64,000 bases of DNA from an uncultured Candidatus Saccharibacteria bacterium (GCA_964398815.1 CAYNNZ010000003.1:6676-70675), one strand, 5' to 3'. Shown: positions 5,228 through 42,116, counted from the stretch's first letter. Numbers and translations are program-made. Notes: a model not told the origin generated them from the sequence alone.

Positions 5228-5467
5228 TGAAGTAGATAGCAAAGCTTGACGGCTATCATTCATTTTACGCGCTAGGGGAGGGAACACAACTTGTGGAAAG
5301 CTTTTTTCATCTCGTAATCCGCTCCTAACTTGAGGAGATTGACATTTAAGATTATATGTGTTAGTTTGTGTACGGAGCTCTAACTATCGCGCTTCGTACA
5401 CCCAACCCTGTTCACGAACAATCCTGATAATGAAGGACCTCGCTGAGCACTACGTTAGGAGATACCC

Positions 5468-23921: not shown

Positions 23922-24549
23922 GAAAATCCCGCACACCAAGTCCATGCTCCGCCGCATTGAATATGCGACGCTCTCAGGCCTTTCTATAGATGGTTCCATA
24001 TTGGATGTGGGTGGCTCGACGAAATCTGGCTATCACGACCTCATCGGTGGGGAGCACACAATACTGACAGGGAATATTGATGAATCCTACGGATGCGACA
24101 TTCTCTTCGATGCGGAGGAAGCGTGGCCGGTCGAGAATGATACCTACTCAGCAGTGCTTCTCATAAATATTCTCGAACACCTCTATCGATACGAGCACGC
24201 GGTTGCAGAAACGCATCGTGTTCTCAAGAGTGGCGGGCGCGTTATCGGGGTGGTTCCATTCATGCTCAACATTCATGCCGCTCCGCGCGACTTCTTCCGT
24301 TACTCGCGCTACACGCTCGAACGCCTTCTTTCTGAGCAAGGATTCAGCGATATTAAAATAGTCGAGCTTGGCACCGGGCTTTTCTCGCTTTTGTATCAGA
24401 GCTCGATTACGCTCGTACCGCTTTTCCTCTCATCTCCGCTCATTGCGCTTGCGCGCACACTCGACGGCATGTTCGACAAGATAAAGCCAAACAGCGCACT
24501 CTCCCGCAAGTACATGCCGCTCGGCTACTACTTCGAGGCGACGAAATAA
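23908..24549 (+). CDS. Class I SAM-dependent methyltransferase
   Basis: Motif I ILDVGGSTKSGY; post-I acidic residue; …LKSGGRVIGVVPF… (Methyltransf_11-like). Confidence 0.55.
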   Translation: MAEHKKIPHTKSMLRRIEYATLSGLSIDGSILDVGGSTKSGYHDLIGGEHTILTGNIDESYGCDILFDAEEAWPVENDTYSAVLLINILEHLYRYEHAVAETHRVLKSGGRVIGVVPFMLNIHAAPRDFFRYSRYTLERLLSEQGFSDIKIVELGTGLFSLLYQSSITLVPLFLSSPLIALARTLDGMFDKIKPNSALSRKYMPLGYYFEATK

Positions 24550-24550
24550 C

Positions 24551-25639
24551 ATGACTCCGCTCAAGCTATATGTGTCGGAGGAGTATCGCGAACCGACGCT
24601 CTTTACCCATACCGAGCTCATGTTCCCGTTCTGGGGGGTTACCGCGAAGGAATCCATGCCGTATGTGCGAGCAGCGAACCAACAGTATCAATATTCGAAA
24701 GATGATTTTACGCTCGTGGACCGTATCGAAGACGCTGAGTACGTGCACGTCCCGTACAGCTACGAACGATTGAAGGCAGCAAACCCTGAGCGGCTCGCGC
24801 GGATTCTGGATGACGCTGCGCGGGCAGGGAAGATGCTCCTCATCGATGGCTCTGGTGATCTTGAATATCCCATCGATGTACCTAACTCTGTCGTGTTACG
24901 AGTGAGCCAATACCGATACCGTATCGCCGCGAATGATCTCACCGTCCCGTTTCCGGCCGAGGACCTGCTTGAAACGTACTATGGCGGCGAGTCGCAGCTT
25001 CGCGAAAAGCCTGAGGTTCCTTCTGTCGGTTTTACCGGCTGGGCTTCTATGACGCTCAAGAACCGCATCAAGACGGAACTCAAGGAACTTCCTATAACAT
25101 TCGCTGGGCTTGCGGACCCCAAGCGACGCGCTGAACGAAAGGGACTCTTTTATCGTGAACGTGCACTCAAGGCGCTTGGAGACACACGGGGAATCGAAAA
25201 TCACTTCACTGCACGCGCGACGTATTCCGGACACGTGAAGACAATTTCGGGCACGGTTGCTGACAATCGCCGTGAGTTCGTTGAGACGCTCGCAGCCTCC
25301 GATTATGCGCTCGCGGTGAAGGGCGACGCTAACTCCTCCGTCCGCTTTTATGAGGCACTCGCGATGGGACGCATCCCGCTCTTCCTTGATACTGCCTGTG
25401 TGCTGCCGCTTGAGCACATACTCAACTATCGCGACTTCTGCGTGTTCGTCGACTGGAGGGACACCGACCGAATAGGGGAGCGGCTGCTCGAATTCCATCG
25501 CGGGGTTTCCCCGGAACGGTTCAAAGAAATGCAGGTACAGGCACGTCAGGCATACCGCCAGTACCTGCGTATGGACTCATTCTCCTCGCAGCTGGCGGCC
25601 CAACTGCGTTCTCGGCTTCTGGGTGCGCAAGCAGGATAA
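24551..25639 (+). CDS. Exostosin-like (GT47-type) glycosyltransferase-family protein
   Basis: C-terminal …YALAVKGDANSSVRFYEALAMGRIPLFLDTACVLP matches the exostosin motif P-x-GD-x-SS-R-hF-EAL-GCIPV. Confidence 0.45.
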   Translation: MTPLKLYVSEEYREPTLFTHTELMFPFWGVTAKESMPYVRAANQQYQYSKDDFTLVDRIEDAEYVHVPYSYERLKAANPERLARILDDAARAGKMLLIDGSGDLEYPIDVPNSVVLRVSQYRYRIAANDLTVPFPAEDLLETYYGGESQLREKPEVPSVGFTGWASMTLKNRIKTELKELPITFAGLADPKRRAERKGLFYRERALKALGDTRGIENHFTARATYSGHVKTISGTVADNRREFVETLAASDYALAVKGDANSSVRFYEALAMGRIPLFLDTACVLPLEHILNYRDFCVFVDWRDTDRIGERLLEFHRGVSPERFKEMQVQARQAYRQYLRMDSFSSQLAAQLRSRLLGAQAG

Positions 25640-25659: not shown

Positions 25660-26937
25660 ATGGCTTCAATGAAAGATATCCAGCGGGAGGCGGTCGAGCC
25701 GCTGTGCCGGGCGCTCACCGAGTGCCGCATGTGCAAATCCAAGAATCTTGAGGAGTACCTCGACCTCGGCCAGACGCCGCCGGCTGATCAGTTTCGTACC
25801 CCTGAAGAACGTGATGTCCCGGAGATTTGGTATCCGCTCCGCGTTGCCGTATGCACCGATTGCGGGCTCTCGCAGCTTACCCATGTAGTAGATGCTCGCG
25901 TGCTCTACCAGTTCGATTATCCGTATGAGTCTTCGACCACCAAGACGGGGAAGCTGCATTGGGACGAATTTGCACAGGCGGTAGTCGCGCGACTTGGGCT
26001 CGCGAAAGAGTCGCTTGTCGTTGATATCGGCAGCAACGTAGGAACGTTACTTGAATCGTTTCGTGACACCGGCATGAACGTTGCGGGCATAGACCCGGCA
26101 CCGAATATTGTTGAAATCGCGAACGCGAACGGCGTCCCGACCATCTGCGATTTTTATGGAGCAGAGAGTGCCGGCGCCACGAAAGAAAGTCATGGGCCCG
26201 CTTCCGCAATCGTAGGGACCAATGTCTTTGCACATATAGACGACCTCGACGCCGTATTCACTGCTAATGAGGAGTTGCTTGCGGACGACGGTGTCTTTAT
26301 TTTCGAGTCTCCGTACTTCGGAAATCTCGTGAAGCATCTTGAGTACGACACGATTTATCACGAGCATCTTTCCTATCTATCGCTCGCTCCGGTCGCGAAG
26401 TTTGCAGAGCGGTTCGGGAGGGAGGTCTTCGCTGTCGAAGAGACGGATATACACGGAGGCTCGTTTCGCGTCTATATCGGGAAAAAAGGACAGCGTCCTG
26501 TAGATGAATCAGTCACACGCATGCTTGCTACCGAAGAGGAGACAGGCCTGAATCGCCTCGAGAACCTCAAAGAATTCGCAGGACGAGTTAGTGAAAACCG
26601 TCGTCAATTGATGGCACTTATCAGTAAGCTCGTAGCAGAGGGCAAGAAAATTGCCATCGTCTCGACCCCCGCAAAGGGCATGACCCTGCTGAACTACTGC
26701 GGCATCACGACCCAGCATGCCACCTTCGCAACCGAAAAGGCCCGCCTCAAGATTGGCCGGGTTACCCCTGGAGGGCGCATCCCTATCGTGCCTGATGAGG
26801 TTCTACTGACTGAGGCCCCGGATTACGCACTTCTCTTGGCGTGGAATTTTGCGAAGGAGATTATGGCGAACAATCAGGCATTCACTGACGCGGGAGGCAA
26901 ATTCATTATCCCTATCCCTGAACCCCGCATCGCATAA
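25660..26937 (+). CDS. NDP-hexose C-methyltransferase (TylCIII-like; Zn-ribbon plus Methyltransf_13/14)
   Basis: N-terminal C4 zinc ribbon (CRMCKSKNL…CTDCGLSQL); SAM motif VVDIGSNVGT; the C-terminal domain typical of sugar C3-methyltransferases. Confidence 0.6.
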   Translation: MASMKDIQREAVEPLCRALTECRMCKSKNLEEYLDLGQTPPADQFRTPEERDVPEIWYPLRVAVCTDCGLSQLTHVVDARVLYQFDYPYESSTTKTGKLHWDEFAQAVVARLGLAKESLVVDIGSNVGTLLESFRDTGMNVAGIDPAPNIVEIANANGVPTICDFYGAESAGATKESHGPASAIVGTNVFAHIDDLDAVFTANEELLADDGVFIFESPYFGNLVKHLEYDTIYHEHLSYLSLAPVAKFAERFGREVFAVEETDIHGGSFRVYIGKKGQRPVDESVTRMLATEEETGLNRLENLKEFAGRVSENRRQLMALISKLVAEGKKIAIVSTPAKGMTLLNYCGITTQHATFATEKARLKIGRVTPGGRIPIVPDEVLLTEAPDYALLLAWNFAKEIMANNQAFTDAGGKFIIPIPEPRIA

Positions 26938-26940
26938 CCT

Positions 26941-27327
26941 ATGGAAATAATCCACACAGAAGTTAATTTCGAGGACGGACGCGGAAAGATTCAAGACATT
27001 CTTACGCATGAGGTTCTGGATGCGGTGACGCTCATCACCTACACGAAGGGAGCAGTACGCGCGAACCATTACCATGAGCACAGCATTCAGTGGGATTACG
27101 TGATATCTGGCACGCTCGAATGTTATACGCAGGCAGGCCCAGACGGTGAAAAGGAGATGCAGATTATCGGCCCTGGCGACCTCGTGAAGCACCCAGTTAA
27201 CGAGCGTCATGCTCTCAAGGCGCTTGAAGACTGCGTCACGCTTTCGCTTACGCAGGGTCCTCGCCGCGGAAAAGACTATGAAAACGACGTTATTCGTCTC
27301 GGCGACGAAGAGAAGCTCGTAACCTAA
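26941..27327 (+). CDS. Cupin-fold NDP-4-keto-6-deoxyhexose 3,4-ketoisomerase-like protein (FdtA/QdtA/WxcM-like)
   Basis: 128-aa single cupin …ANHYHEHSIQWDYVISGTLE…; sits immediately upstream of a DegT aminotransferase. Confidence 0.5.
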   Translation: MEIIHTEVNFEDGRGKIQDILTHEVLDAVTLITYTKGAVRANHYHEHSIQWDYVISGTLECYTQAGPDGEKEMQIIGPGDLVKHPVNERHALKALEDCVTLSLTQGPRRGKDYENDVIRLGDEEKLVT

Positions 27328-27330
27328 GGT

Positions 27331-28455
27331 ATGCACGTACCTGTCGGTAAGCCCCTATTTGGCGACATCGAGAAAAAGCTCGTTAACGATGCACTCGATA
27401 AAGGAGAGATTTCCGGCTTCTTCGGTAATTACATTGGTGATTTCGAGCGGGCATTCGCGGAATTTTGCGGAACAAAAGATGCAGTAACGGTATCAAGTGG
27501 TACGACCGCCCTCCATCTTGCGCTCGATACGCTCGGAATCGGGGAGGGGGATGAGGTGCTGGTTTCTTCCTTCACTAATATGGCGACCTTCTTCGCCGTG
27601 CTGTATCAGGGTGCGGTACCTATCGCCATCGATTCGGAACCGAATACGCTCAACATGGACCCGGCACTACTTGAGGCGAAAATCACTCCTCGGACCAAGG
27701 CAATCATGGTCGTGCATATCTACGGCCAGCCGGCAGATATGGACCCGATTCTCGCTATCGCCAAGAAGCACAATCTGTATGTCATCGAGGATGCTGCAGA
27801 AGCGCATGGGGGAGAGTACAAGGGCCGCAAGACCGGCTCGATGGGCGATATCGGCTGCTTCAGCTTCTACGCGAACAAAATCATTACTACGGGAGAGGGA
27901 GGCATGCTCACCATGAATGACCCGGCGCTCGCAGAGCGCGCTCGCAATCTGAAGGCGCTTGCGTTCGGAAAAGAGAACAAGTTCATGCACGCGGATATTG
28001 GATATAACTACCGACTCACGAATATCCAGTCTGCAATAGGCTGCGCTCAAATGACGCGCATCGATGACATTCTTTCCCGCAAGGATGCGATGGCCGCCTA
28101 CTATAAGGAGCACTTGTCTGATATCGAAGGACTGCGTCTCCCGATTCAGTTACCCGAGACACGGAACGTGTGGTGGATGTATAACGTGCGTCTTGAGGGA
28201 CCACTCAAAGGCAGGCGCTCGGAATTCATGAGGGCGCTCAAGGAGAAGGGTGTTGAGAGCCGTGAGGATTTCATCCCGTTCAACGACCAGACCATTTTCA
28301 TCGAAAAAGGTCTCACGATGCCTGGCGAATGTCCGGTAGCGAGCGAGGCAGGTCGAGAAGGATTCTATATTCCAAGCGGCACGGATATCAGCGAGGAGGA
28401 GCAGGCGTATGTCTGTGAGGTAATGCACGAGGTCGCGGCCTCGTTCCGTGCGTAG
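27331..28455 (+). CDS. DegT/DnrJ/EryC1/StrS-family PLP-dependent sugar aminotransferase
   Basis: …VTVSSGTTALHLAL…DEVLVSSFTNMATF…SFYANKIITTGEGGML (the lysine in the YANK motif). Confidence 0.8.
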   Translation: MHVPVGKPLFGDIEKKLVNDALDKGEISGFFGNYIGDFERAFAEFCGTKDAVTVSSGTTALHLALDTLGIGEGDEVLVSSFTNMATFFAVLYQGAVPIAIDSEPNTLNMDPALLEAKITPRTKAIMVVHIYGQPADMDPILAIAKKHNLYVIEDAAEAHGGEYKGRKTGSMGDIGCFSFYANKIITTGEGGMLTMNDPALAERARNLKALAFGKENKFMHADIGYNYRLTNIQSAIGCAQMTRIDDILSRKDAMAAYYKEHLSDIEGLRLPIQLPETRNVWWMYNVRLEGPLKGRRSEFMRALKEKGVESREDFIPFNDQTIFIEKGLTMPGECPVASEAGREGFYIPSGTDISEEEQAYVCEVMHEVAASFRA

Positions 28456-29758: not shown

Positions 29759-30559
29759 ATGCCAAAGGCGCTTCTTTTCGATACACCGGCCTCATTGCCG
29801 TTCCCGCTCACTATTTCTCACTACCATGTCTTTGCAAGTGGCAGAGCAAGGGAGGGGCTTAAAGACGAGGCGCTCGATTCGCCGGAATCGTGGGATGCCC
29901 TTCGTGAGAGCGACCCCATGTTTTCAATTGCGCAGACGCGGGACGAATGGGTGCGCGTAAACGAGGAAGCGATACGCAAAGACGGACAGGACGAGCGGCT
30001 ACGCGAACGCGGGAAGGACATTGCCTCGCTTCTTTCACAGAAAGGAATCACGACACTATTCTCGACTGGTTCGGGAGGTGCAGGTCTTGAATATCACATC
30101 CTGAAGAATCTTTCGGGGCTCAAAGTGGTGTGCTCTGAATACGCGCCAAAATCTGTCGAACTACTCCGGAATGTATTCACGGAAGCTGAAGTGATTCAGC
30201 TCGATATTACTTCGACCGACTGGTCTTCGATAACAGCGCGTGCGGATGCGAACACGACGGTCTGCCTCATGTATCGGCTCGACGCAGGCTTCACTGATCG
30301 GCAGTGGAAGGATATCTTTGCATCGCTCGCGCGTGCGGGGGTGAAGCAGGTTCTCTATATTCCCACAGGCTTCCTCACGCTTCGCAGCCTTGTCTCGCGC
30401 CTCCGCCTCCGCCTCTCTTGGATGCTGTCTGGAACCCCCATGGTCTACGCGGGACACCTGCGCACTAAGGCAACATTTGAGACCTATTGGCAACGTCACT
30501 TTACTGCCACCGAGCATGTTGTAGGAGGTATGACCGGTTTCTGGCTTACTCGTAACTAG
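29759..30559 (+). CDS. Hypothetical protein, possible Rossmann-fold methyltransferase
   Basis: LFSTGSGGAGLEYHIL resembles SAM motif I; otherwise no clear family. Confidence 0.3.
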   Translation: MPKALLFDTPASLPFPLTISHYHVFASGRAREGLKDEALDSPESWDALRESDPMFSIAQTRDEWVRVNEEAIRKDGQDERLRERGKDIASLLSQKGITTLFSTGSGGAGLEYHILKNLSGLKVVCSEYAPKSVELLRNVFTEAEVIQLDITSTDWSSITARADANTTVCLMYRLDAGFTDRQWKDIFASLARAGVKQVLYIPTGFLTLRSLVSRLRLRLSWMLSGTPMVYAGHLRTKATFETYWQRHFTATEHVVGGMTGFWLTRN

Positions 30560-30576: not shown

Positions 30577-31578
30577 ATGGCTAAACGCGCATTCATAACA
30601 GGTATTACCGGGCAGGACGGTGCATATCTCGCAAAGTTCTTGGTGGGGAAGGGCTATAAGGTATTTGGTGGATATCGAAGGAGCTCGACGCGCAACTTCT
30701 GGCGCCTGCATTACCTCGATGTAAAGAAGGATGTCGAGCTCATTCCAATGGACCTCATCGACCAGACCTCCATCATGGCAGCGCTTCGCACCGCAGAACC
30801 GGACGAGGTCTACAACCTCGCCGCACAGAGTTTCGTCGGCGTTTCGTTCGATGAAGCAATTGCGACAGGAGAGACGAGCGGCCTCGGTGTCACGCGCATG
30901 CTCGACTCCATTCGCTTCATGGCGCCGAAGGCCCGTTTTTATCAGGCCTCCACGTCGGAAATGTACGGCATGACGCCGGGTCCTCAGGACGAGAAGACCG
31001 TGTTTGCTCCACAGAGTCCGTACGCGGCTGCAAAGCTCTACGGCCACTGGGTAACCCAGAACTATCGCACGGGATACGATATGCATGCGTCGACCGGCAT
31101 TCTCTTTAATCACGAGTCGCCGATACGCGGCATCGAGTTCGTGACGAAGAAAATCAGCGATGGCGTCGCACGTATCAAGATGGGCTACATCCCGGAAATC
31201 TATCTCGGAAATATGGATGCAAAGCGCGACTGGGGATTTGCGGGCGACTACGTGGAAGCGATGTGGATGATGCTTCAACAGGGGAAACCGGATGATTATG
31301 TGATTGCTACCGGAGAGACGCATTCCGTCCGCGAGTTCGCAGAAGCAGCATTTGCGCATGTCGGTCTCGATTACAAGAAGTACGTGAAGCAGAAGCAGGA
31401 GTTCATGCGTCCGCTTGATGTGCCGCACCTGGAGGGCAATCCCGCCAAGGCCAAAGAGAAGCTTGGGTGGACACCAAAAGTTTCATTCAAAGAGCTCGTA
31501 GCAATGATGGTTGATGCTGATTTGGAGAAGTATCAGAATCCGACCAAGCACGCTGAGCAGTTTTTGAAGCATATATAA
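30577..31578 (+). CDS. gmd: GDP-mannose 4,6-dehydratase
   Basis: MAKRAFITGITGQDGAYLAKFLVGKGYKV… and ..YAAAKLYGHW..; near-canonical Gmd N-terminus and catalytic YxxxK. Confidence 0.85.
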   Translation: MAKRAFITGITGQDGAYLAKFLVGKGYKVFGGYRRSSTRNFWRLHYLDVKKDVELIPMDLIDQTSIMAALRTAEPDEVYNLAAQSFVGVSFDEAIATGETSGLGVTRMLDSIRFMAPKARFYQASTSEMYGMTPGPQDEKTVFAPQSPYAAAKLYGHWVTQNYRTGYDMHASTGILFNHESPIRGIEFVTKKISDGVARIKMGYIPEIYLGNMDAKRDWGFAGDYVEAMWMMLQQGKPDDYVIATGETHSVREFAEAAFAHVGLDYKKYVKQKQEFMRPLDVPHLEGNPAKAKEKLGWTPKVSFKELVAMMVDADLEKYQNPTKHAEQFLKHI

Positions 31579-32532: not shown

Positions 32533-33273
32533 TTAGGGTTTGGGCGGCTCTTGCACCGCCTGGATGCTGTAGCCGCCGTCGACGGGGACCACGGCGCCGT
32601 TCATGAACGCGTTGTCGTGCACCATCCAGATGGCCTTCGCGATCTCGTGTGGCGTCGCCATCCGTTTCATGGGATTGACGGCCGCACAGGCGCTCACGGC
32701 CTTCCGGTCGTTGCCGAACGCGGCATGAAGGAAGGGGGTGTCCGTCTGGCCGGGGCACACGCAGTTCGCGCGGAACCCATGGTCAGCTCCATAGAGCGCG
32801 AGCGCTTTGGTGAAGTTGACCACCCAGGCCTTTGACGCCGAATACAGGATGGCGTCCTTGTCGGGAAGAAGCGCGACGTCCGAGCCGATAGTGACGATGC
32901 TACCGTTCGACTCGATGAGGAGCGACATAGCCGCTTCGCACGTCAGCCAGACACCGCGCATGTTCACGTCCGATAGACGTTCGAATTCAGAGACACTCGT
33001 CTTTTCGATCGGAGTCGCCGAGTGGACGCCGGCGCATGTGACCAAGAGGTCGAGACGTCCGCGCTCTTTTCGCACCCACTCGAAGAGGTTGTCGATGTCG
33101 TCAGGCGAGCTGACGTCACAGACGAACCGGTTGGTGTTCGGCTCGAAGTCGTACACGTCCCCATTCTTGTCGGCTTGGATGACATTCCACCCCTTACGCG
33201 CGAGCAGGCGAGTGATAGCGAGTCCGATGCCCGAGGCACCGCCAGTGATGACGGCTACTTTCTGAACTTTCAT
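32533..33273 (-). CDS. Short-chain dehydrogenase/reductase (SDR) family oxidoreductase, GC-rich
   Basis: MKVQKVAVITGGASGIGLAI…; catalytic YSASKAW; SD GGAG 8 nt upstream. Start at internal ATG 33273 of ORF 32533-33441. Confidence 0.75.
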   Translation of the reverse strand: MKVQKVAVITGGASGIGLAITRLLARKGWNVIQADKNGDVYDFEPNTNRFVCDVSSPDDIDNLFEWVRKERGRLDLLVTCAGVHSATPIEKTSVSEFERLSDVNMRGVWLTCEAAMSLLIESNGSIVTIGSDVALLPDKDAILYSASKAWVVNFTKALALYGADHGFRANCVCPGQTDTPFLHAAFGNDRKAVSACAAVNPMKRMATPHEIAKAIWMVHDNAFMNGAVVPVDGGYSIQAVQEPPKP

Positions 33274-33381
33274 GATTGAGCTCCAAAAAACTTTCAATAT
33301 ACGATACCATGGTAATATATAAATGTCAAACACTGACCCGCAACCTTTTACGTCTAATGTTGGTATGATGAGGGACAACCC

Positions 33382-34518
33382 ATGAAGCTCGTCTACCTGA
33401 CCGCCACCCGCATTCCGGATGACTGGGCGCATGTCCTCCAAATTCTCCAGATGTGCGAGGCCTTCTCGCTTGCGGGGGCAGAGGTTGAGCTCCTTGCGCC
33501 TCGCCGGAAGGCAATGATTGATGCGAACCCGTATGACTACGCGGGAGTCGTAAAGAATTTCAAAATAACGAAACTCCCATGTCTCGAGCTCTTTCCAGGG
33601 AGCGAGAGTAAATTCCTGTTCTATCTTCGGACCTTCTCATTCTTCGTCGCCGCAAAGCTCTATCTCGCATTCCAGAAGTACGATGTTCTCTACACGCGTG
33701 AGCATCTTGCGGGACTTTTCTTCAATAAATTCATATATGAAGTGCACTCGAAGCCGGATGCCGGGAAGGGAGTCTACGAGCGTCTCTGGAAACGCGCGAG
33801 AGGATTCGTCGTGCTCACCTCGTTCATGAAAGACACCTACGTAAAGTCGGGTCTTCCGGAAGAGCGCATCACGGTCGCACCTGATGGCGTGAAGCTCGAC
33901 GAATTCACGGTGAATGAGGCGCGCGATGAGGTGCGCAATCGCCTTTCGCTGCCAAAGGATAAATACCTCGTTGGGTACGTCGGAACGCTAAAGACCATGC
34001 AGATGGAGAAGGGTGTTGGACCAACCATTGAGGCGCTTGCCGCGCTTCCGGACGACGTGGAGTTTTACGTGGTAGGCGGCGAGCCGGCACATATTGAGGA
34101 ATATAAGCAACTCGCTGCGGTGAAGGGGGTGGGGAATCGCACGCACCTTATCGGAAAAGTCGCACATGACCTTGTGCCTCAGTACCTCGCAGCATTTGAT
34201 ATCGTGGTCGCGCCATTCCCAGACTTCGAGCACTACCGATACTTCATGTCGCCGCTCAAGATTTTCGAGTACATGGCCGCAGGGGTGCCGATGATCGTTA
34301 CGAATCTACCGTCGCTTCGGGAGGTTCTTACTGATGAAACAGCAAAGTTCATCCCTCCGGATGACGTGCCTGCGCTTGCGCAGGCAATCAAAGAACTTAA
34401 GGACCACCCTGAAGAGGCGCGTGCGCTTCGCCTCTCTGCTCGTCGTGATGCTGAAGAGCGCTTCAGCTGGGAGGCACGGGCGCGCGGTATACTCTCCTTC
34501 ATACAGGCCCGTGACTGA
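33382..34518 (+). CDS. Glycosyltransferase family 4
   Basis: …YLVGYVGTLKTMQMEKGV…FMSPLKIFEYMAAGVPMIVTNLPSLREVL (E-x7-E). GAGGG lies 8 nt upstream. Confidence 0.65.
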   Translation: MKLVYLTATRIPDDWAHVLQILQMCEAFSLAGAEVELLAPRRKAMIDANPYDYAGVVKNFKITKLPCLELFPGSESKFLFYLRTFSFFVAAKLYLAFQKYDVLYTREHLAGLFFNKFIYEVHSKPDAGKGVYERLWKRARGFVVLTSFMKDTYVKSGLPEERITVAPDGVKLDEFTVNEARDEVRNRLSLPKDKYLVGYVGTLKTMQMEKGVGPTIEALAALPDDVEFYVVGGEPAHIEEYKQLAAVKGVGNRTHLIGKVAHDLVPQYLAAFDIVVAPFPDFEHYRYFMSPLKIFEYMAAGVPMIVTNLPSLREVLTDETAKFIPPDDVPALAQAIKELKDHPEEARALRLSARRDAEERFSWEARARGILSFIQARD

Positions 34519-35212
34519 GATACTCATACCGACCTATAACGAAGCCGGCAATATCGCGAGCATCATCGCTCGCGTGCGCGAGGTCGTGCCTGAGGCCCGC
34601 ATTCGGGTCATCGACGATAACTCTCCGGACGGGACGGGAGATATCGTACGGGAATTCGCCGCAAAAGACTCGCAGGTGATGTTGCTTTCCCGGAGCGGAA
34701 AGGAAGGCCTCGGAAAGGCGTACCTTCATGGGTTTGCCGAAGCACTCAAGGACCCCAGCGTTACGCACATACTGATGATGGATGCAGATTTCTCTCATGA
34801 CCCTGAGTACATCCCGCAGTTGCTCGCAAAGTCAGCGGACCACGAACTGGTCACGGGCTCGCGCTATATTCCGGGAGGAGCGACCGAGGGATGGGAAGGG
34901 TGGCGTCGGTATCTCTCCACGGGAGGTAATGCCTACGTACGCGCGATTCTCGGCATTCCCGTGCACGACGTGACGGCAGGATTCAACCTGATTGCGACTG
35001 ATGCGCTGCGCCGGATTGATTTCGCGCGCCTCGATGCGTCTGGCTATGCGTTCCAGATTGAACTCAAGTATCTCCTGTGGAAGGCAGGAGCTCGTCCTGC
35101 AGAAGTGCCTATCCTTTTCAAAAATCGCAGGGAAGGAGAATCGAAGATTTCGAATCACATTATTGCCGAGGGACTCATCGCACCATGGAAACTTCTCTTC
35201 AAGAACCGATAG
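34511..35212 (+). CDS. GT2 polyprenyl-phosphate sugar synthase (Dpm1/ArnC/GtrB-like)
   Basis: …ILIPTYNEAGNIASII…RVIDDNSPDGTGDIV…MDADFSHDP (the DxD motif). Start uncertain: in-frame GTG 34511 overlaps the upstream stop; the ORF track frame begins at 34334. Confidence 0.7.
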   Translation: MTEILIPTYNEAGNIASIIARVREVVPEARIRVIDDNSPDGTGDIVREFAAKDSQVMLLSRSGKEGLGKAYLHGFAEALKDPSVTHILMMDADFSHDPEYIPQLLAKSADHELVTGSRYIPGGATEGWEGWRRYLSTGGNAYVRAILGIPVHDVTAGFNLIATDALRRIDFARLDASGYAFQIELKYLLWKAGARPAEVPILFKNRREGESKISNHIIAEGLIAPWKLLFKNR

Positions 35213-36054
35213 CCTGTCCAGTATGCGCGGCTGACGTCTCGCGGATATATCAGCGCAAGAACGGGTATGAGATAGTCGTGTGCGATGTCTGTCACGTGCG
35301 ATACGTGCACCCCATGCCTACTGCTCTTGAGGACCTCTACGCGGAGAACTACTTTGCGGGGGCGGATGAAGGATTCGGATATGTTGACTATGACGCCGAC
35401 AAAGAACCGATGGTGGGTGCGTTCAAGAAATACCTTCAGCACGTCCGCAAACTCTCACCCCAGGCAAAATCCTTGCTGGATGTCGGCGCTGCAACTGGAT
35501 TCTTCCTTGATATTGCACGCACAGACGGCTTTACGGTCGCGGGTGTCGAGATATCCGAGTTTGCTGCCCAGAAGGGGAGAGACAAGGGTATCGAGATGAC
35601 CACCGGCACGCTCGATCAAGTGTCCGGAACGTATGATGTTATCTCGATGCTCGACCTCATCGAGCATGTGACCGACCCTCGTGCGGAACTTAAGAAGGCG
35701 CACGCACTCTTGGCCGAACATGGCCTTCTCGTCATTAATACTCCTGATGCCGGGAGTCCGTATGCAAAACTGATGGGGCCGAAATGGCATTTGATTGTCC
35801 CGCCCGAGCACCTCTTTTACTTCGACAGGAAAAACATCGCGAACCTTCTTGCGCAGGAGGGGTTCAAGGTCGAGCTAACGACCACTATAGGCAAGAACTT
35901 CACGCTTCCGTATATATTCCGCACAGTACACGGCTGGCTCGGGTGGAGTGTCCTCTCGTGGTTCGCGAAGGTGGCGGGGTTGCCAGTCCTGCGCGATATC
36001 GCGCTCCCTATTAATCTGGGAGACAACATGTTCGTTATCGCGAGAAAGGTATGA
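35185..36054 (+). CDS. Class I SAM-dependent methyltransferase with an N-terminal Zn-ribbon (Methyltransf_23-like)
   Basis: CPVCAAD…CDVCHVRYV; motif I LLDVGAATGFFL; …VISMLDLIEHV. ATG 35185 overlaps the GT2 gene by 28 nt. Confidence 0.6.
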   Translation: METSLQEPIACPVCAADVSRIYQRKNGYEIVVCDVCHVRYVHPMPTALEDLYAENYFAGADEGFGYVDYDADKEPMVGAFKKYLQHVRKLSPQAKSLLDVGAATGFFLDIARTDGFTVAGVEISEFAAQKGRDKGIEMTTGTLDQVSGTYDVISMLDLIEHVTDPRAELKKAHALLAEHGLLVINTPDAGSPYAKLMGPKWHLIVPPEHLFYFDRKNIANLLAQEGFKVELTTTIGKNFTLPYIFRTVHGWLGWSVLSWFAKVAGLPVLRDIALPINLGDNMFVIARKV

Positions 36055-37724
36055 AGTCCAAGGTGACGAGTATCTTTATCGGCATTTGCGTCCTTCTTAT
36101 GGTCGCCCCGTGGGGTGTGTTGGCGGTGGTGAATCACGGATCGTTCACGGTCCCGCCTGAGCTTATGGACGATAGCGGGTACTACTACGCTCGCATGCAG
36201 GCAGTAGCAGATGGCCACCCCTTCATCGGTAACCCGTACTTCAAAGAGCACGCAGATGCGATGGCCTCTGCCTTCTTCGGTGCCGACTGGATTGCCAGCA
36301 TTCCACTCTTCCTGCATCTCCCGCTTGTTCCTGCGGCGCTTTTGAACCTTGCGCTTTCGACAGCGCTGTTCGTGGCGCTGTCACTGATGCTCCTGAGGCT
36401 TCTTGGGCTCTCGTCCAAATGGCAGATGGCAGGTGTGCTCGCGCTCCTCCTGACAGCGTACTGGTTCCTTCTGCGTCCAGTTGCGATGCAAGTAGTGTTC
36501 CCGTCCTTCCTTTTTTTCTTGCTCGGATATCTCACGTGGCTGCAGAACCCGGCGAGCAAGAAGCGGCTCGCACTCCTCGTCGTCTCAAGCGCGCTTACGT
36601 TCTATCTGTATACCTATCTGTGGCAGATAGTCACGATAGTCATCGGACTTACGCACGTAATGTTCCTCACACCCGCACGCAAACGGTATCTATCATTAGC
36701 TGTCGCTGACTTCGTAATAGCTTTCCTCATCGCACCAATAATTTGGTATACCTATCTACAACTTCAGAATCCCGACTACTGGGAGACGGTAACTCGTATC
36801 GGGTATATCGCGACCCACACGTTTGGCGCTGCAGCAGTACTGAATCTTGGACTTACTGTCATTGCTTTTCTTCTCGTACTGATTGCTGGTCGCAAGGTGC
36901 TTACGCGACCGAACAGTATGTTCTTCACGTTCACTGGTGCGGCGCTTGTTATCGCATCATTCAGCAATGTCATTACGGGCAAAGATCTCGAAACTGCCGT
37001 GCATATGGGTCGATTCGTTGAGTTATGGGGAGCACTCGCCGTATCTTGCGCTGCGTTCTATTTCGTTTCCGAAAAGGGCACTGACAGAAATGGCTCGATC
37101 GCACTTGTTGTTTCCGGCGCCCTGATGCTCCTGCTTCTGGGGAATCTCGTGAGTGTGCAGAATCGTTCGGATGAATATCTACGAGGCGAGTCATATCAGG
37201 AGGTGCTGACCTGGCTGAATGAAAACACTCCTCCTGGTTCTGTCGTGCTCGCTGACGATAAGTTGTCGTACTACATACCGGTCGCAACCCGCGACTTCGT
37301 TTTGTTCCAGCCCGATGGAGGTCTCTACCTCGTTCCCGATAGGGAAGTAGAGGACCGGTACCTCGCATCACGGATATTCTCGAATCTCACCAAAGACCAG
37401 CTGAAAGCGGACTTCAGGCTGTATGCGGGGGTAGGGAATGCCGTGCATCACTTCAAGGTCCATAATCGCGAGGTCGCACTATGTCGCGCGCTCCATCTTC
37501 CTCACTGTGGCGACATCATTCCTGATGCCGTCACGGACCGCGGCGAGGCCTATTTCGATGAGCTGTATATGAGGTACCAACTCATGAGTGCAGCAAAGAC
37601 AAGCACTCTCAAAGACTATGGGGTAGAGTACATTGTCAGCGCGACACCACTGATGGACCTCTCGCAGTTCACGCTCGTAAAAGTTAGCGGATTCTATATC
37701 TACCTCCTTACTCAGCCCACATGA
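36051..37724 (+). CDS. Polytopic membrane protein (about 12 TM plus a C-terminal soluble domain), candidate GT-C-type lipid-linked sugar transferase
   Basis: 557 aa. TM helices through about residue 370, then a hydrophilic about 180-aa domain. The ATGA overlap with the upstream methyltransferase and co-orientation with the GT2 gene suggest a Dpm1-like/ArnT-like pair. No motif-level proof. Confidence 0.4.
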   Translation: MKSKVTSIFIGICVLLMVAPWGVLAVVNHGSFTVPPELMDDSGYYYARMQAVADGHPFIGNPYFKEHADAMASAFFGADWIASIPLFLHLPLVPAALLNLALSTALFVALSLMLLRLLGLSSKWQMAGVLALLLTAYWFLLRPVAMQVVFPSFLFFLLGYLTWLQNPASKKRLALLVVSSALTFYLYTYLWQIVTIVIGLTHVMFLTPARKRYLSLAVADFVIAFLIAPIIWYTYLQLQNPDYWETVTRIGYIATHTFGAAAVLNLGLTVIAFLLVLIAGRKVLTRPNSMFFTFTGAALVIASFSNVITGKDLETAVHMGRFVELWGALAVSCAAFYFVSEKGTDRNGSIALVVSGALMLLLLGNLVSVQNRSDEYLRGESYQEVLTWLNENTPPGSVVLADDKLSYYIPVATRDFVLFQPDGGLYLVPDREVEDRYLASRIFSNLTKDQLKADFRLYAGVGNAVHHFKVHNREVALCRALHLPHCGDIIPDAVTDRGEAYFDELYMRYQLMSAAKTSTLKDYGVEYIVSATPLMDLSQFTLVKVSGFYIYLLTQPT

Positions 37725-38626
37725 TACGTACACTCCTCCGTAATATTCGTTACCTTCTCACGGAGGACCTGCGTAGCACTACGTGGCGATTGTTTATGAT
37801 GGAGAAGTCCATTCGTGGGGTAAGTACGCTCGCGCTCCGTACGTCGCATCCGGGACTACCTCTGTATGCGCCGGTCGCCCACAGTGAAATCAACGAGCAC
37901 GAGCAGCGCATTTATTCTCAAAATGGCGAGGACGGTATCCTCATGTGGCTTTTTTCGAAAATAGGAACCAGTACCAAAACATTTATAGAATTTGGTGCAG
38001 GAAGCGGCCGCGAGTGCCTCGCAGCTAATCTCGTTCTCAACTTTGGATGGGCAGGATTGCTTATGGATGGTTCAGGAGAAAATATCTCATCCGCTCGTCT
38101 CTTCTTTAAGTACTTACTCCCGTGGTCACAGTACGAGCAGCTGGAGATTAGGCAGGAGTTCGTAACGCGAGAAAATATCGAAACGCTCCTTGCGGGCCGT
38201 CGACATCAGGGAGAAGTCGACCTTCTGTCCATAGATATAGACGGTAACGATTATTGGGTGTGGGAAGCCATTGAGTCTATTACGCCGCGGGTGGCCGTTA
38301 TCGAATACAACGCAACGTTTGGACCGACCGCATCAATCACAGTGCCGTATCGTGCGGACTTCAACGCCTATGCAGAACATCCACTCGGTCTCTACCACGG
38401 CGTCTCGGTACAAGCACTCAAGAAACTGGGAGAGCGAAAGGGGTACACTTTCCTCGGGTGTGATTCGAATGGCGCGAATACCTTCTTCGTGCGGAATAAC
38501 CTTGTTGGGAGTCTGGCTCCTGCCGACCCCGTCCAGGCATTTTATGACAATGAGCATAAACTTAAGCGCGGCTCCCAGCTCGCCCAAGCAGAGCTTATTG
38601 CTGGGAAGGAGCTAGTTGAGGTGTAG
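37721..38626 (+). CDS. FkbM-family methyltransferase-like protein
   Basis: …IYSQNGEDGILMWLFSKIG…FIEFGAGSGRECL… (the Q-x-GED motif typical of the FkbM family). ATGA overlap. Confidence 0.4.
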   Translation: MIRTLLRNIRYLLTEDLRSTTWRLFMMEKSIRGVSTLALRTSHPGLPLYAPVAHSEINEHEQRIYSQNGEDGILMWLFSKIGTSTKTFIEFGAGSGRECLAANLVLNFGWAGLLMDGSGENISSARLFFKYLLPWSQYEQLEIRQEFVTRENIETLLAGRRHQGEVDLLSIDIDGNDYWVWEAIESITPRVAVIEYNATFGPTASITVPYRADFNAYAEHPLGLYHGVSVQALKKLGERKGYTFLGCDSNGANTFFVRNNLVGSLAPADPVQAFYDNEHKLKRGSQLAQAELIAGKELVEV

Positions 38627-39872
38627 TACGCACCGAGTGATACTTCACCAGCGCGCTCAGCAATATGAGGTTAAATACACGGCCAATTATGCGCGCGACA
38701 ATTACGCCGAGCAGGCCATAGAAAATGGTACACGCCACTAACGTTCCAATGAGCACAATGGGGGATGCAATGTTGAAGATATAGAGCTCTCGTTTAGCGG
38801 CCTGTGCCTGCAGAACAGTGAGTGGAATCGTATTTGAGACAAACATAAGAGAGAGTGCGAACAGCTGCGAATACCATATCGCGTCTGTATAGGCCGGTAG
38901 GAAAAGTTGGAAAAAAAGCGGTGCCAGTGCAACATAAAATATCGTTGCTAGTGCCAGAAATCCTGTGTAATACGCCAAACGATGCCACAAGTTTGCCTCA
39001 ATTTCTTGTGGAGTACGTTGCGAGAACTTTGGAAATGCGAGGGTCGCAATATTGTTAAGCAGTCCCTTGATCTGTTCCGGGAAGGCGAGGGCAAATGTAT
39101 ACACCGCAAGCTGGGCAGCACCAAGGAAGTGGAATACTAGGAGCTTATCTATCTGCTGCGAGATAGTCGCCAATACGTTCATGGCACTGAAATGACTTCC
39201 GTTACGGAAGAAATCAGGAGCTTCCTTAGTATTGGGCTTGAACCGCTTATAGACCCACAATCCAAATAGGAGTCCAATAATAACGTTGCCGAGCAAGTAG
39301 ATTCCGAAGAAGACCAAAGGGTCCTGCGACACGAACATGGTTCCCAGAAGAAGGAGTGCGGGGAATAGGTTCAGAATTATTCCGAAGAGTGAATAGAGGC
39401 GGAATTCCCGCTTGGCTTCGAGGTATATGCCAAACAGGAAGCTGGCCTGCATGAATGGACCGACGAGCGCGATCAAAAGGAGTCCGAATCCGAGTGTCTG
39501 GTTATGCTGAATGAAATAATAGGCCGATGCAGGCACCGAGATAAGAGAGATGGGAAGACTGCCGAGCACCGTGAGCTTAAACGACCGTTTGTAGACTCCC
39601 TCGTCTCCGCGTGCGATTGCTTGAGTTGCTGCAGTCGAGAGGCCGGTTAAGGAAAACGCAGATAGGGTCCAAAAGACCGACAATAGGAAGCGATAGGTGC
39701 CGTATGTCTCCTTTGAAACGAAGTGAGCAAACGCGATCGAGGAACCGAAAGCCACGAGTGCAATGCCAATCTGGCTTATAGTCAGCCAACCTATACCTTT
39801 TATGGCATAGGTCATGTCGGTCTTAAAATAGCGCTCGCTCCATCGGAGGAGACGCTCGAGGCGGGCATGCAT
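38595..39872 (-). CDS. Wzx-like oligosaccharide flippase (MOP superfamily polysaccharide biosynthesis protein)
   Basis: 425 aa, at least 12 TM helices, with the typical N-terminal region of polysaccharide-biosynthesis/MOP exporters. Confidence 0.65.
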   Translation of the reverse strand: MHARLERLLRWSERYFKTDMTYAIKGIGWLTISQIGIALVAFGSSIAFAHFVSKETYGTYRFLLSVFWTLSAFSLTGLSTAATQAIARGDEGVYKRSFKLTVLGSLPISLISVPASAYYFIQHNQTLGFGLLLIALVGPFMQASFLFGIYLEAKREFRLYSLFGIILNLFPALLLLGTMFVSQDPLVFFGIYLLGNVIIGLLFGLWVYKRFKPNTKEAPDFFRNGSHFSAMNVLATISQQIDKLLVFHFLGAAQLAVYTFALAFPEQIKGLLNNIATLAFPKFSQRTPQEIEANLWHRLAYYTGFLALATIFYVALAPLFFQLFLPAYTDAIWYSQLFALSLMFVSNTIPLTVLQAQAAKRELYIFNIASPIVLIGTLVACTIFYGLLGVIVARIIGRVFNLILLSALVKYHSVRTTPQLAPSQQ

Positions 39873-39941
39873 ATTCCTTATATAGTAGCCCCGCCTCCCT
39901 TGGGAGGCGAGTACCTAGCCTGTAACCGCCTGGCATAGGGG

Positions 39942-42116
39942 ATGGTGGCAGGGGTGGTATCATCTGCCCATATGACCATGAAGGACTTAGCCCGCTGGGC
40001 CGTGTATGTGCCGCTGTTTATCATCCCGTTCATTCCGCTCTATGTCGCGAACGACCTATTTTTCCCTTTCATAACCGGAAAGGGATTTGCGTTCCGCATA
40101 CTCGCTGAAATAGCGCTCGCTGGCTACGTAGTCCTCGCGATGGCCGATGCACGGTACCGTCCGCGATTCTCATGGGTCTTCGTCCTCTATGGCGCGTTTA
40201 TCCTCTGGATGCTTATTGCGGACCTCGCTGGCATGAATCCGCATAAGGCGCTCTGGAGCAACTTCGAGCGCATGGAGGGCTGGGTCACGCTCATACACGT
40301 CTTCATGTTCTTCCTCGTGTCAGGCGCGGTCTTCTCGACCGATAAGCTTTGGCGCAAGTGGTGGCTCACCTTCATCGGCGCTTCCGCGCTCCTGTGCTGC
40401 TACTGCCTCCTCCAGCTTTCAGGCGCAATCACCATCCATCAGGGAGGGGTGCGCGTCGACGGTACATTTGGAAACGCGGCATATCTCGCGGCATATCTTC
40501 TCTTCGCTGCGGCAGTGACCATCTGGCAGGCGCTTGAATCTAAGGAGTGGATGCGTTACTCACTTCTCGTCCTTGCCGCATTCCAAATCATCATTATCTT
40601 CTTCACTGCAACGCGCGGTGCCGTACTCGGCCTTGTCGGAGCAGGCCTCGTGGGCGGCATTCTCTGGGCGGTAGAAGCAGGAGGGAAATCCCGCAAGATA
40701 GCGGCCGGCATCGTGGGAATCATCATCCTCATGGCGGGAGGATTCTACCTCATAAAGGACAGTCAGTTCGTAAAGTCTGAGCCTACACTCGACCGCATCT
40801 CCTCCATCTCGCTCAAGGACCTCTCGGTGCGCTCGACCCTCTGGGGCATGGCCCTTAAGGGAGTCGCAGAGCGTCCGGTATTCGGTTGGGGTCAGGAAGG
40901 ATTCAATTACATATTCAATAAGTACTACGAGCCATCCCTCTATGCGCAGGAGCCGTGGTTCGATCGTGCCCACGATGTGTTCATCGACTGGCTCGTCGCA
41001 GGCGGCATCCCCGGATTCCTCCTCTTCCTCGGGGCATTCGCAACTGCCATCTGGGCCCTCTATCGGGGCGGGGCATCGCGTGAGGAGCGCATCCTGCTCA
41101 TCTCTGCACTCGTAGCCTATGGCATTCAGGGCATTGTGGTGTTCGATAACCTCTTTACCTATGTGCCGCTCGCAGCCATACTCGCGACTGCGCACACCGC
41201 GCGCAGCAAACCATGGAAGAAACTCGAGGCCATGCCGAACGCCGGCGAACCGACGCTTCAGATGGCGCTTCCGGTCGCAGCGGTCCTTGGCATTGCGCTC
41301 ATCTGGGTGGTAAACGTTCCGAACATTGCGGCAGCATACTCACTCGTTCGCGCTATTAGCATCACCAGCAATGACCTCGGCCCGAACGTCGCCTACTTCC
41401 AGAAGGCACTCGCTGAGCCGACTTTCGCCAAGCAGGAGGTCCGTGAGCAGTTGGTTATCTTCTCGAGTAATATCGCAGCAGCGCTCGCGAGCGCGCCGAC
41501 GAAGGAACTCGCTCAGGTGACCGGACTCGCACTTGATGAGATGGGTAAGGAGATTGAGTCTCAACCGAATGACGCGCGCCTGCGCCTCGAGTACGCACTT
41601 GGCTATCGTGTGACGGGTGACTATACGAGCGCGCTCAAGCAGATTGCCATTGCGCATCAGCTCTCTCCTCGCAAACAGTCCATCCTCATCGAGCAAGGCA
41701 TTGAGTACTGGCAGGTAGGCGAATTCGCGAAGGCGAAGGAAGCCTTTGACCTCGCATACTCAGTAGACCCATCGTTCGAAGCGCTCGCGGCATACGCTGC
41801 TGCCGGTACGATTGCGGCAGGGGACCTCGAGGGCGGTCGTGCCCAGCTGCTTGAGCGTACGGGCACCACTACCATCGATAACGAAGCGCTCGTCCTCGCG
41901 TACTATCAGGCGAAGGATTACACCGACCTCATCCTCGTGCTACAGGAACAGGTCCGTAAGCAGAATGGCTCGCCAGAATCCCGGTTCCGACTCGCCGCAG
42001 CGCTCGCTGCCGCAGGACGCACCGCCGAGGCGCGCCTGGAGGTATCGAAAGCAGTCGCCGAGCATCCTGAAATGGCGGCGCAGGCAGCCGAGTTCGTAAA
42101 GCATCTACCGAACTAA
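39942..42116 (+). CDS. O-antigen ligase/polymerase (Wzy_C)-family membrane protein with C-terminal TPR repeats
   Basis: About 10 TM with a large periplasmic loop (…FFTATRGAVLGLVGAGL… Wzy_C-like). C-terminal about 250 aa are TPR-like Ala-rich repeats. The start could be ATG 39972/39978. Confidence 0.6.
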   Translation: MVAGVVSSAHMTMKDLARWAVYVPLFIIPFIPLYVANDLFFPFITGKGFAFRILAEIALAGYVVLAMADARYRPRFSWVFVLYGAFILWMLIADLAGMNPHKALWSNFERMEGWVTLIHVFMFFLVSGAVFSTDKLWRKWWLTFIGASALLCCYCLLQLSGAITIHQGGVRVDGTFGNAAYLAAYLLFAAAVTIWQALESKEWMRYSLLVLAAFQIIIIFFTATRGAVLGLVGAGLVGGILWAVEAGGKSRKIAAGIVGIIILMAGGFYLIKDSQFVKSEPTLDRISSISLKDLSVRSTLWGMALKGVAERPVFGWGQEGFNYIFNKYYEPSLYAQEPWFDRAHDVFIDWLVAGGIPGFLLFLGAFATAIWALYRGGASREERILLISALVAYGIQGIVVFDNLFTYVPLAAILATAHTARSKPWKKLEAMPNAGEPTLQMALPVAAVLGIALIWVVNVPNIAAAYSLVRAISITSNDLGPNVAYFQKALAEPTFAKQEVREQLVIFSSNIAAALASAPTKELAQVTGLALDEMGKEIESQPNDARLRLEYALGYRVTGDYTSALKQIAIAHQLSPRKQSILIEQGIEYWQVGEFAKAKEAFDLAYSVDPSFEALAAYAAAGTIAAGDLEGGRAQLLERTGTTTIDNEALVLAYYQAKDYTDLILVLQEQVRKQNGSPESRFRLAAALAAAGRTAEARLEVSKAVAEHPEMAAQAAEFVKHLPN

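Follow-up and report, generated by a model that had tools for sequence, protein, structure and literature searches.

What is the function of the operon at positions 33382-38626 in a 64,000-nt stretch of DNA from an uncultured Candidatus Saccharibacteria bacterium (GCA_964398815.1 CAYNNZ010000003.1:6676-70675; this whole stretch is hereafter the window), which encodes a 557-amino-acid (aa) membrane protein of an unannotated family among glycosyltransferases and methyltransferases? We propose, with a probability of roughly 0.7, that the operon, together with a GtrA-family gene at 21723, encodes a GtrABC-like multi-component transmembrane glycosylation system in a bacterium of the Candidate Phyla Radiation (CPR)/Patescibacteria. 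In this system, a predicted polyprenyl-phosphate sugar synthase of glycosyltransferase family 2 (GT2) would supply the donor for a putative glycosyltransferase of the GT-C fold, the 557-aa protein, acting at the outer face of the membrane.

Sequence searches gave no family assignment for the 557-aa protein. It had no Pfam or NCBIfam match at E ≤0.01, lacked a profile match to the named GT-C families (ArnT/PMT PF02366, PMT_2 PF13231, STT3 PF02516 and YfhO PF09586), and found no match among Protein Data Bank (PDB) sequences with phmmer. A profile of the 22-member family recovered no GT-C enzyme from all PDB sequences with hmmsearch, and a Pfam scan of the 22 members returned no named GT-C family at E ≤1, the few listed matches being unrelated (E ≥0.016). 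A distant relative (P0225) had a sub-threshold match to DUF6057. The AF2 model built from the 22-sequence alignment had a pLDDT of 91.1 and a pTM of 0.90, and when it was compared to the PDB with Foldseek, the top 35 matches were exclusively GT-C enzymes, with a probability of 1.0 and TM-scores of 0.4-0.5. These included PglB (E 1.6e-6, TM-score 0.50) and ArnT (TM-scores 0.49/0.51), as well as human and yeast STT3, AftA, DPY19, EmbA/B/C, ALG9, Pmt4 and AftB. The first matches outside the GT-C fold were major facilitator superfamily (MFS) transporters and aquaporins, with probabilities ≤0.33 and TM-scores of ~0.1. The suggestion of an initial annotation of this DNA that the membrane protein is a GT-C enzyme was borne out by the modelled fold and its structural matches, and a transporter or other non-glycosyltransferase family did not emerge as its relative. 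Identification of the 557-aa protein as a GT-C-fold glycosyltransferase is largely supported by this predicted structure.

Model and hydropathy together gave 11 transmembrane (TM) helices, instead of the 12 counted in the initial annotation, and two short helices in the first outer loop. The predicted topology was N-in and C-out and obeyed the positive-inside rule, with inner loops enriched in lysine and arginine, while the first outer loop (residues 28-91, 64 residues) had seven acidic residues versus two basic residues. The C-terminal 186 residues (372-557) were placed outside the membrane by the model topology, in keeping with the large extracytoplasmic domain described earlier, and this domain had a pLDDT of 88.7 when modelled alone. 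In GT-C enzymes, an acidic residue of the first outer loop is used for catalysis, and basic residues at the outer leaflet bind the lipid phosphate. Conserved residues of the family clustered on the outer face of the GT-C model: the first outer loop carries D40-D41, part of a D-D-S-x-Y-Y-Y motif with which the first loop helix begins, and D41 was invariant in the 22 sequences and kept in 114 of 137 sequences of a broad family alignment. The other conserved GT-C residues were Y45, N61-P62-Y63, R142-P143, Y185/Y187, R249, K311, H318 and R321, and in the C-terminal domain E432 and R436 were conserved, where an invariant E-x-x-x-R436-Y motif was found. In the model, D41 and the basic residues of the outer face match the GT-C active-site pattern and would have the corresponding roles.

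The GT2 gene was consistent with the earlier description of its product as Dpm1-like. The DPM1-type motifs PTYNE, DDNSPDGT and DADFSHD were all present, the DAD motif inside MMDADFSHD, and the best solved relative was the dolichol-phosphate mannose (Dol-P-Man) synthase of Pyrococcus furiosus (5mlz; E 3.5e-26, 95 bits, residues 3-225), compared with 30-33 bits for ArnC and 25 bits for chondroitin synthase in the same PDB search. The Pyrococcus enzyme has a GtrA-like TM domain, which is missing from the 233-aa protein. The latter has >8,000 relatives of ~233 aa, the named ones being from Patescibacteria lineages and carrying the homology-based names 'polyprenol monophosphomannose synthase' (NCBI) or 'dolichol-phosphate mannosyltransferase' (JGI). 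The prediction that this GT2 is a TM-less DPM1/Ppm1-type polyprenyl-phosphate monosaccharide synthase is supported by homology, and mannose would be the best guess for its sugar, given the enzyme family and the GDP-mannose genes in the surrounding glycan island (a 4,6-dehydratase, E 1e-121, and a cytidylyltransferase/mannose-6-P isomerase-type protein). A processive synthase, which the initial annotation had named as the outcome that would count against it, was ruled out by the length of 233 aa, the lack of a TM segment and the higher score for Dol-P-Man synthase than for chondroitin synthase (95 versus 25 bits).

The four genes on which the initial annotation was based, from GT2 to a gene for an FkbM-like methyltransferase, were present on the plus strand where it had placed them, and independent gene callers agreed on their coordinates (Table 1). 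The start-stop overlaps from which it had deduced translational coupling were likewise all real. The GTG start of GT2 at 34511, within the string cccGTGACTGAg, overlaps the TGA (34516-34518) that ends a preceding GT4 gene; the ATG of the zinc-ribbon methyltransferase at 35185 overlaps the end of GT2 (35212) by 28 nt; and open reading frame (ORF) coordinates gave 4-nt ATGA overlaps at 36051/36054 and 37721/37724. Products of 233, 289, 557 and 301 aa were called by ENA and Logan on other assemblies of the same organism, and JGI, starting two of the genes further downstream, has products of 246 and 276 aa for these. The longer starts are better supported because the four N-terminal cysteines of the methyltransferase were invariant in 11 orthologues and homologues span 100% of the 233-aa and 301-aa products. 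The proposed four-gene module stood insofar as its genes are coupled, but the conserved module begins one gene earlier, with GT4 at 33382, and the FkbM-like gene is only an occasional member. GT4 is coupled to GT2 by the same kind of overlap as the rest of the operon, which it opens, and is conserved as a partner of the module; its best PDB relatives were the generic GT4 enzymes Tll1590, MshA, PimB' and PimA. The operon is delimited by a divergent short-chain dehydrogenase/reductase (SDR) gene upstream and a convergent Wzx gene downstream. As a mechanical ORF (32533-33441, minus strand, 302 aa) the SDR gene extends into the start of GT4, whereas gene callers on sister contigs gave 246 aa, leaving a divergent intergenic region of ~100 bp before GT4 that is likely the promoter region of the operon. 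A scan of 33100-40100 for promoter and terminator consensus sequences gave counts not above shuffled expectation.

Table 1. Genes of the operon and associated membrane protein genes in the window (positions counted from its first nucleotide).
Feature	Position	Strand	Evidence
GT4 (GT-B, nucleotide-sugar dependent), 378 aa	33382..34518	+	Pfam Glyco_trans_1_4 E 6e-24, Glycos_transf_1 E 3e-19
Predicted DPM1/Ppm1-type GT2, 233 aa, GTG start, no TM segment	34511..35212	+	PF00535 E 1e-26
Class I S-adenosylmethionine (SAM) methyltransferase with N-terminal four-Cys zinc ribbon, 289 aa	35185..36054	+	PF13489 (Methyltransf_23) E 2e-28
Putative GT-C-fold membrane glycosyltransferase, unannotated family, 557 aa	36051..37724	+	AF2 model and Foldseek
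Divergent FkbM-superfamily methyltransferase, 301 aa	37721..38626	+	Relatives passing PF05050
GtrA-family four-helix membrane protein, 130 aa	21723..22115	+	PF04138 E 4e-21
Wzx-type (Polysacc_synt) flippase	38595..39872	-	PF01943 E 2e-19
Wzy_C (O-antigen ligase/PglL-type) membrane protein, C-terminal TPR repeats, 724 aa	39942..42116	+	PF04932 E 2e-17 and TPR

The gene arrangement is not a chance one, as it recurred in 16 loci found via the GT-C protein (window excluded) and 80 metagenome loci found via the methyltransferase. The order GT4-GT2-methyltransferase-GT-C was colinear in the window and in six independent loci, L005, L006, L007, L008, L010 and L014, with the variants GT4-GtrA-GT2-GT-C (L004), GT4-GT2-GT-C lacking the methyltransferase (L003), and GT2-methyltransferase-GtrA followed at some distance by GT4 and GT-C (L015 and L016). 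A GT4 orthologue (>170 bits) was beside or near the GT-C gene in most related loci, and a GT2 orthologue (>230 bits) was within the flanks in 11 of the 16 loci found via GT-C, with a weaker GT2 adjoining GT-C in two. Among the top 150 family representatives, in which fusions were sought, GT-C was fused to GT2 in three clusters at 50% identity (P0153, P0222 and P0228), to GtrA in five, and to the methyltransferase in one (P0172/L024, with the order GT4-GT2-methyltransferase::GT-C). The fused GT2 and methyltransferase domains were orthologous to the window genes (251 and 185 bits, respectively), and the P0153 and P0172 fusions each occurred on two contigs, the P0153 pair coming from separate JGI and Logan samples. 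The orientation of the fusions fits the topology, as the first GT-C helix is N-in and the partner ahead of it is either cytoplasmic or N-in/C-in. Fusion and linkage to GT2 and GtrA, together with the basic residues on the outer face, indirectly suggest that the GT-C protein uses a lipid-phosphate-linked sugar donor.

In a reciprocal test starting from the methyltransferase, 56 loci had enough flank to show the directly preceding gene, which in 40 of them was a GT2 orthologue, and a member of the GT-C family was immediately downstream in 19 of 39. In seven further methyltransferase loci, the GT-C slot was occupied by a different protein of 8-11 TM helices; two of these passed the YfhO (PF09586) threshold, one was just below it and one had a weak PMT_2 match. 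YfhO is an established GT-C enzyme of lipoteichoic acid (LTA) and wall teichoic acid (WTA) glycosylation systems (PMC8035078). Given the pairing of GT2 with the methyltransferase and the varied occupants of the slot that follows, the pair behaves as a donor cassette and the next gene as an exchangeable GT-C; it looks like a portable donor cassette. The YfhO-type or weakly PMT_2-like slot proteins were encoded at 6846-9251 in L047, 6825-9245 in L058, 947-3214 in L103 and 6871-8307 in L084.

A word-indexed search found only 22 relatives of the GT-C protein, whereas searching 1.84 billion representatives with a full profile yielded 1,700 at E ≤0.001, of which 369 were at E ≤1e-30, giving a family of at least 1,700 clusters at 50% identity. 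The 15 species-level genome loci were all from uncultured metagenome-assembled genomes, 11 of which were titled as CPR/Patescibacteria lineages (Paceibacterota, Magasanikbacteria, Saccharibacteria, Lloydbacteria, Peribacteria and 'Patescibacteria group'), three as 'bacterium' only and one as Gammaproteobacteria. Among the Saccharibacteria, the genomes of L009, L012 and L018 had members of the family. In several related loci the orphan GT-C gene occurred twice or was accompanied by a distant paralogue (L013, 1394-3052 and 3802-5565; L011, 6044-7885 and 7884-9560; L014, 7887-9653 and 15523-17373; L022, 8357-10258, where a second large membrane protein is unannotated), and such side-by-side copies suggest several acceptor or linkage specificities per genome. 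In the literature searched, we found no paper on this GT-C family or on GT-C enzymes in Patescibacteria.

The earlier assignment of the gene between GT2 and GT-C as a zinc-ribbon methyltransferase held, as its product matched PF13489 and the four cysteines of the ribbon (C11, C14, C33 and C36; CxxC...CxxC) were invariant in the 11 orthologues, as was the SAM motif D99-G101-A102-A103-G105. This methyltransferase is a conserved module member, and its matches in the PDB were restricted to generic class I methyltransferases and UbiG, with no characterised sugar methyltransferase among them. The label FkbM-like for the last gene comes from its relatives and not from its own sequence: the 301-aa protein had no Pfam match at E ≤0.01, and against PF05050 (Methyltransf_21; cut-off 22.7) relatives at 62-76% identity scored 17-18 bits and those at 45-53% identity scored 27-31 bits. 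The protein has 3,867 homologues. Within loci found via GT-C, they were present in the window and L018 only, with a PF05050 gene also called in the fusion locus L022, and a homologue was present in one of the 23 full-flank methyltransferase loci. With homologues in so few loci, the FkbM-like gene is best regarded as accessory.

The module lies within a glycan island of ~23 kb (19.8-43 kb), which encodes UDP-glucose dehydrogenase-like, epimerase, several GT4, GT47-like, sugar C-methyltransferase, DegT aminotransferase, Wzx and Wzy_C/TPR proteins. MurB follows the island, and the housekeeping flanks encode FolD, SecDF, MurD, MurC, SecA, Obg and GatB. GtrA, which adjoins the module in L004, L015 and L016, is a candidate for flipping the lipid-linked sugar or for partnering the TM-less GT2 in the membrane. 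The 3' end of the Wzx gene overlaps that of the operon by 32 nt, and the same convergent position was found in L001/L005, L024 and L022. The Wzy_C/TPR protein, which co-occurs in L001, L003, L011 and several metagenome loci, probably handles a main glycan that the module may decorate.

Other genes of the window bear on the glycan and cell surface. A 362-aa protein (24551-25639, plus strand) has an exostosin/GT47 domain (PF03016, E 5e-11) and a weak RXYLT1 C-terminal match; the exostosin/GT47 fold is known mostly from eukaryotic glycan synthesis. Genes at 25660-28455 and 30577-31578 (plus strand) encode a zinc-binding sugar C-methyltransferase (PF08421 and PF08484), a DegT-type aminotransferase and the GDP-mannose 4,6-dehydratase, a combination that suggests that the main glycan contains a 6-deoxyhexose, either branched or aminated; L001 likewise has a C-methyltransferase and DegT pair ahead of the module, and L003 has genes of both types near it. 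A 266-aa protein (29759-30559, plus strand) had no Pfam or NCBIfam match and contains a GSGGAG stretch, noticed by eye, that could be a nucleotide- or SAM-binding loop; L001 has an unannotated 273-aa protein (4451-5272) in a comparable place, just before GT4. Between the MurC/RsmI-like genes and the start of the island lies a TrwB/TraG-like type IV coupling-protein ATPase gene (13510-15255, plus strand; PF10412 and PF12696). At 50159-64000 (plus strand), a single reading frame stays free of stops for at least 4,614 codons; it has a probable start near 50183 and runs off the end of the window. Its product would have an N-terminal helix-turn-helix-like segment and one hydrophobic helix, followed by Thr/Ser/Gly-rich sequence with repeats (GGTGLTSIASSSLLIGG...YATSSLGI), and its first and last 1,200 aa had no Pfam match. 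The strongly negative GC skew at 50-64 kb is due to this frame, which may encode a giant surface protein and possible glycosylation acceptor.

Taken together, we postulate the following route. At the cytoplasmic face, the TM-less GT2 would use a nucleotide sugar to load polyprenyl phosphate with a hexose, the enzyme class following from homology and the sugar being a presumed one. The zinc-ribbon methyltransferase might then O-methylate the lipid-linked sugar before flipping, a step proposed from gene order, fusion and the cassette behaviour of the pair. GtrA, or possibly the neighbouring Wzx, would take the lipid-linked sugar to the outer face, where the GT-C enzyme would accept the polyprenyl-phosphate donor at the outer leaflet, with R142, R249, K311, H318 and R321 holding the phosphate and D41 of the first outer loop as presumptive catalytic acid/base. 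The sugar would then be passed to an acceptor held by the C-terminal outer domain with its E-x-x-x-R436-Y motif. This acceptor is probably a glycan made by the surrounding island and handled by Wzx and Wzy_C/TPR, and GT4 would probably make or prime it. The FkbM-like enzyme may be a strain-level accessory, adding a further methyl group somewhere on the glycan.

Several observations weigh against this scheme. Of the sequences in the broad alignment only 83% keep D41, a shortfall that noise in the alignment may explain, and the C-terminal domain modelled alone had no significant structural match in the PDB (best E 0.5). The GT2 scored far under every NCBIfam equivalog cut-off, the best being AglJ (57 versus 325 bits). 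GtrA is in the same glycan island but lies ~12 kb upstream of the module in the window. The fusion of methyltransferase and GT-C was seen in one cluster, and since the two genes normally share an ATGA overlap, a frameshift error could mimic it. Finally, the ORFs scanned in the window, which were all but a few short ones, included no initiating phosphoglycosyl transferase.

The transfer of a methylated sugar, suggested by the initial annotation, is an inference. We suggest, tentatively, that the zinc-ribbon methyltransferase acts on the polyprenyl-phosphate monosaccharide at the inner face, so that the donor of the GT-C enzyme, whether orphan or YfhO-type, would be O-methylated, and that this may be a widespread step specific to CPR/Patescibacteria. 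In the literature searched, we found no description of a methylated polyprenyl-phosphate-monosaccharide donor for a GT-C enzyme, and no paper linking a methyltransferase to polyprenyl-phosphate-sugar donors, a gap that does not by itself prove novelty. Alternatively, GT2 and GT-C may act as proposed while the substrate of the methyltransferases is a nucleotide sugar, the acceptor once it has received the sugar, or the main glycan, where methylation might, for instance, cap and terminate the chain. This, too, is a possible but doubtful explanation. It would account for L003, where GT4, GT2 and GT-C occur without the methyltransferase, and for the further methyltransferases of the island (23908-24549 and the C-methyltransferase at 25660-26937), which suggest that methylated sugars arise by other routes; nor did the literature searched yield a paper on a methyltransferase acting on a polyprenyl-phosphate monosaccharide in a GT-C system, although such an absence is not evidence. 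However, the adjacency of GT2 and the methyltransferase in 40 of 56 loci, irrespective of the GT-C family that comes next, speaks against this alternative, as does the fusion, which would tether the methyltransferase to the inner face of the membrane. Methylation of a lipid-linked glycan also has a precedent in AglP of Haloferax (PMC3871713).

The nature of the acceptor bears on a second alternative, which retains the polyprenyl-phosphate-(methyl)hexose donor. Instead of decorating a Wzx/Wzy_C glycan, the system might build a lipomannan-like lipoglycan, with GT4 priming a glycolipid at the inner face and GT-C extending it outside, according to the PimA/PimB-Ppm1-PimE/MptB logic known from Actinobacteria. 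GT4 was the most constant neighbour of GT-C and its solved relatives include PimA and PimB', but these matches were weak (25-27 bits) and generic for GT4 enzymes. No Wzx or Wzy_C was detected within the fetched flanks of, for example, L006-L008 and L010, and the window gave no initiating phosphoglycosyl transferase among its scanned ORFs, yet Wzx was convergent to the operon in several distant loci, and none of the findings points to a lipid acceptor. We consider a lipoglycan unlikely on balance.

It is more improbable still that the 557-aa protein is an oligosaccharyltransferase or ligase that, like PglB and STT3, moves a whole undecaprenyl-diphosphate-linked oligosaccharide onto protein. PglB and STT3 were top Foldseek matches, and the giant Thr/Ser-rich protein (≥4,614 aa) encoded 12 kb downstream would offer a possible acceptor. 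However, the WWD string of the WWDxG motif of STT3, PglB and AglB is absent from the 557-aa sequence, STT3 and PglB were not matched at sequence level even by the family profile, and the C-terminal domain alone had no significant match to oligosaccharyltransferase domains, the C-terminal regions of STT3 and PglB matching it weakly (TM-score ~0.3). Its linkage and fusion both to the DPM1-type synthase and to GtrA suggest a monophosphate-linked monosaccharide donor, and a Wzy_C/PglL-type protein is already there for en-bloc transfer. We regard it as very improbable that the 557-aa protein has no GT-C chemistry and acts instead in transport, flipping or polymerisation, in what would then be a mixed glycan locus, for although it has no sequence-level family assignment, transporter folds reached probabilities of ≤0.33 and TM-scores of ~0.1 compared with 1.0 and 0.4-0.5 for GT-C enzymes, and the fusions and the equivalence of its slot with that of YfhO point to a GT-C enzyme.

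The GtrABC-like scheme that we favour resembles established three- and multi-component systems, namely GtrA-GtrB-GtrC of Shigella and Salmonella phages and CsbB-GtcA-YfhO and GtlA-GtcA-GtlB of Bacillus and Listeria (PMC8035078, PMC11127046). As in GtrABC and CsbB-GtcA-YfhO, a GT-A-fold polyprenyl-phosphate synthase, a GtrA-family protein and a GT-C protein are encoded together, the GT-C protein has an acidic motif in an outer loop, and in sister loci a YfhO-type enzyme fills the same slot. In contrast to the membrane-anchored GtrB and CsbB, the synthase of the window has no TM segment. Its GT-C protein is outside all sequence families used by those systems, a conserved zinc-ribbon methyltransferase sits between synthase and GT-C and is sometimes fused, GT4 is conserved, and the host belongs to the CPR/Patescibacteria.

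Comparable logic is found in Haloferax volcanii, where a DPM1-like enzyme loads mannose onto a separate lipid phosphate, a Wzx-like protein helps to flip it and a multi-TM transferase adds the mannose to an already transferred glycan (AglD/AglR/AglS), with the methyltransferase AglP in the pathway (PMC3871713). A SAM methyltransferase is thus common to both pathways, and AglJ was the best NCBIfam match of the window GT2; the Haloferax system differs in being archaeal, in using dolichol phosphate and in that AglP acts on the main lipid-linked oligosaccharide, where it methylates a hexuronic acid, and not on the separate mannose. Actinobacterial Ppm1 (PMC5882110) has a soluble catalytic domain of the same type, and relatives of the GT2 share its name at NCBI. 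The actinobacterial system also shares the logic of GT4 enzymes (PimA and PimB') that prime an acceptor inside and GT-C enzymes (Pmt, PimE and MptB) that finish it outside (PMC5882110), but its GT-C enzymes belong to GT39 and PimE instead of an orphan family, it has no embedded methyltransferase, and in most Actinobacteria its genes are dispersed and not in one overlapping operon. ArnC and ArnT likewise form a pair of GT2 synthase and GT-C enzyme, and ArnT, similar in size to the 557-aa protein, gave the most symmetrical TM-scores (0.49/0.51). In contrast, the window GT2 matched ArnC at only 30-33 bits versus 95 bits for Dol-P-Man synthase, and the Arn pathway uses undecaprenyl-phosphate-L-Ara4N, deformylates instead of methylating the lipid-linked sugar, and has lipid A as acceptor.

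The initial annotation had called the system possibly novel. It is less so than supposed, because it follows a known three-component logic (PMC8035078, PMC11127046). What is new is the outer enzyme, which comes from a large unannotated family, and the conserved methyltransferase embedded between the two enzymes. The envelopes of CPR/Patescibacteria are almost unstudied chemically, yet these tiny episymbionts depend on contact with the host surface. For a large family whose members are listed in databases as hypothetical proteins only, the module supplies a fold and suggests a probable role, and the pair of GT2 and methyltransferase is compact. If our reading is true, the outer enzyme would constitute a new GT-C sequence family for glycosyltransferase classification, and methylation of its donor would be a new modification within the three-component glycosylation scheme.

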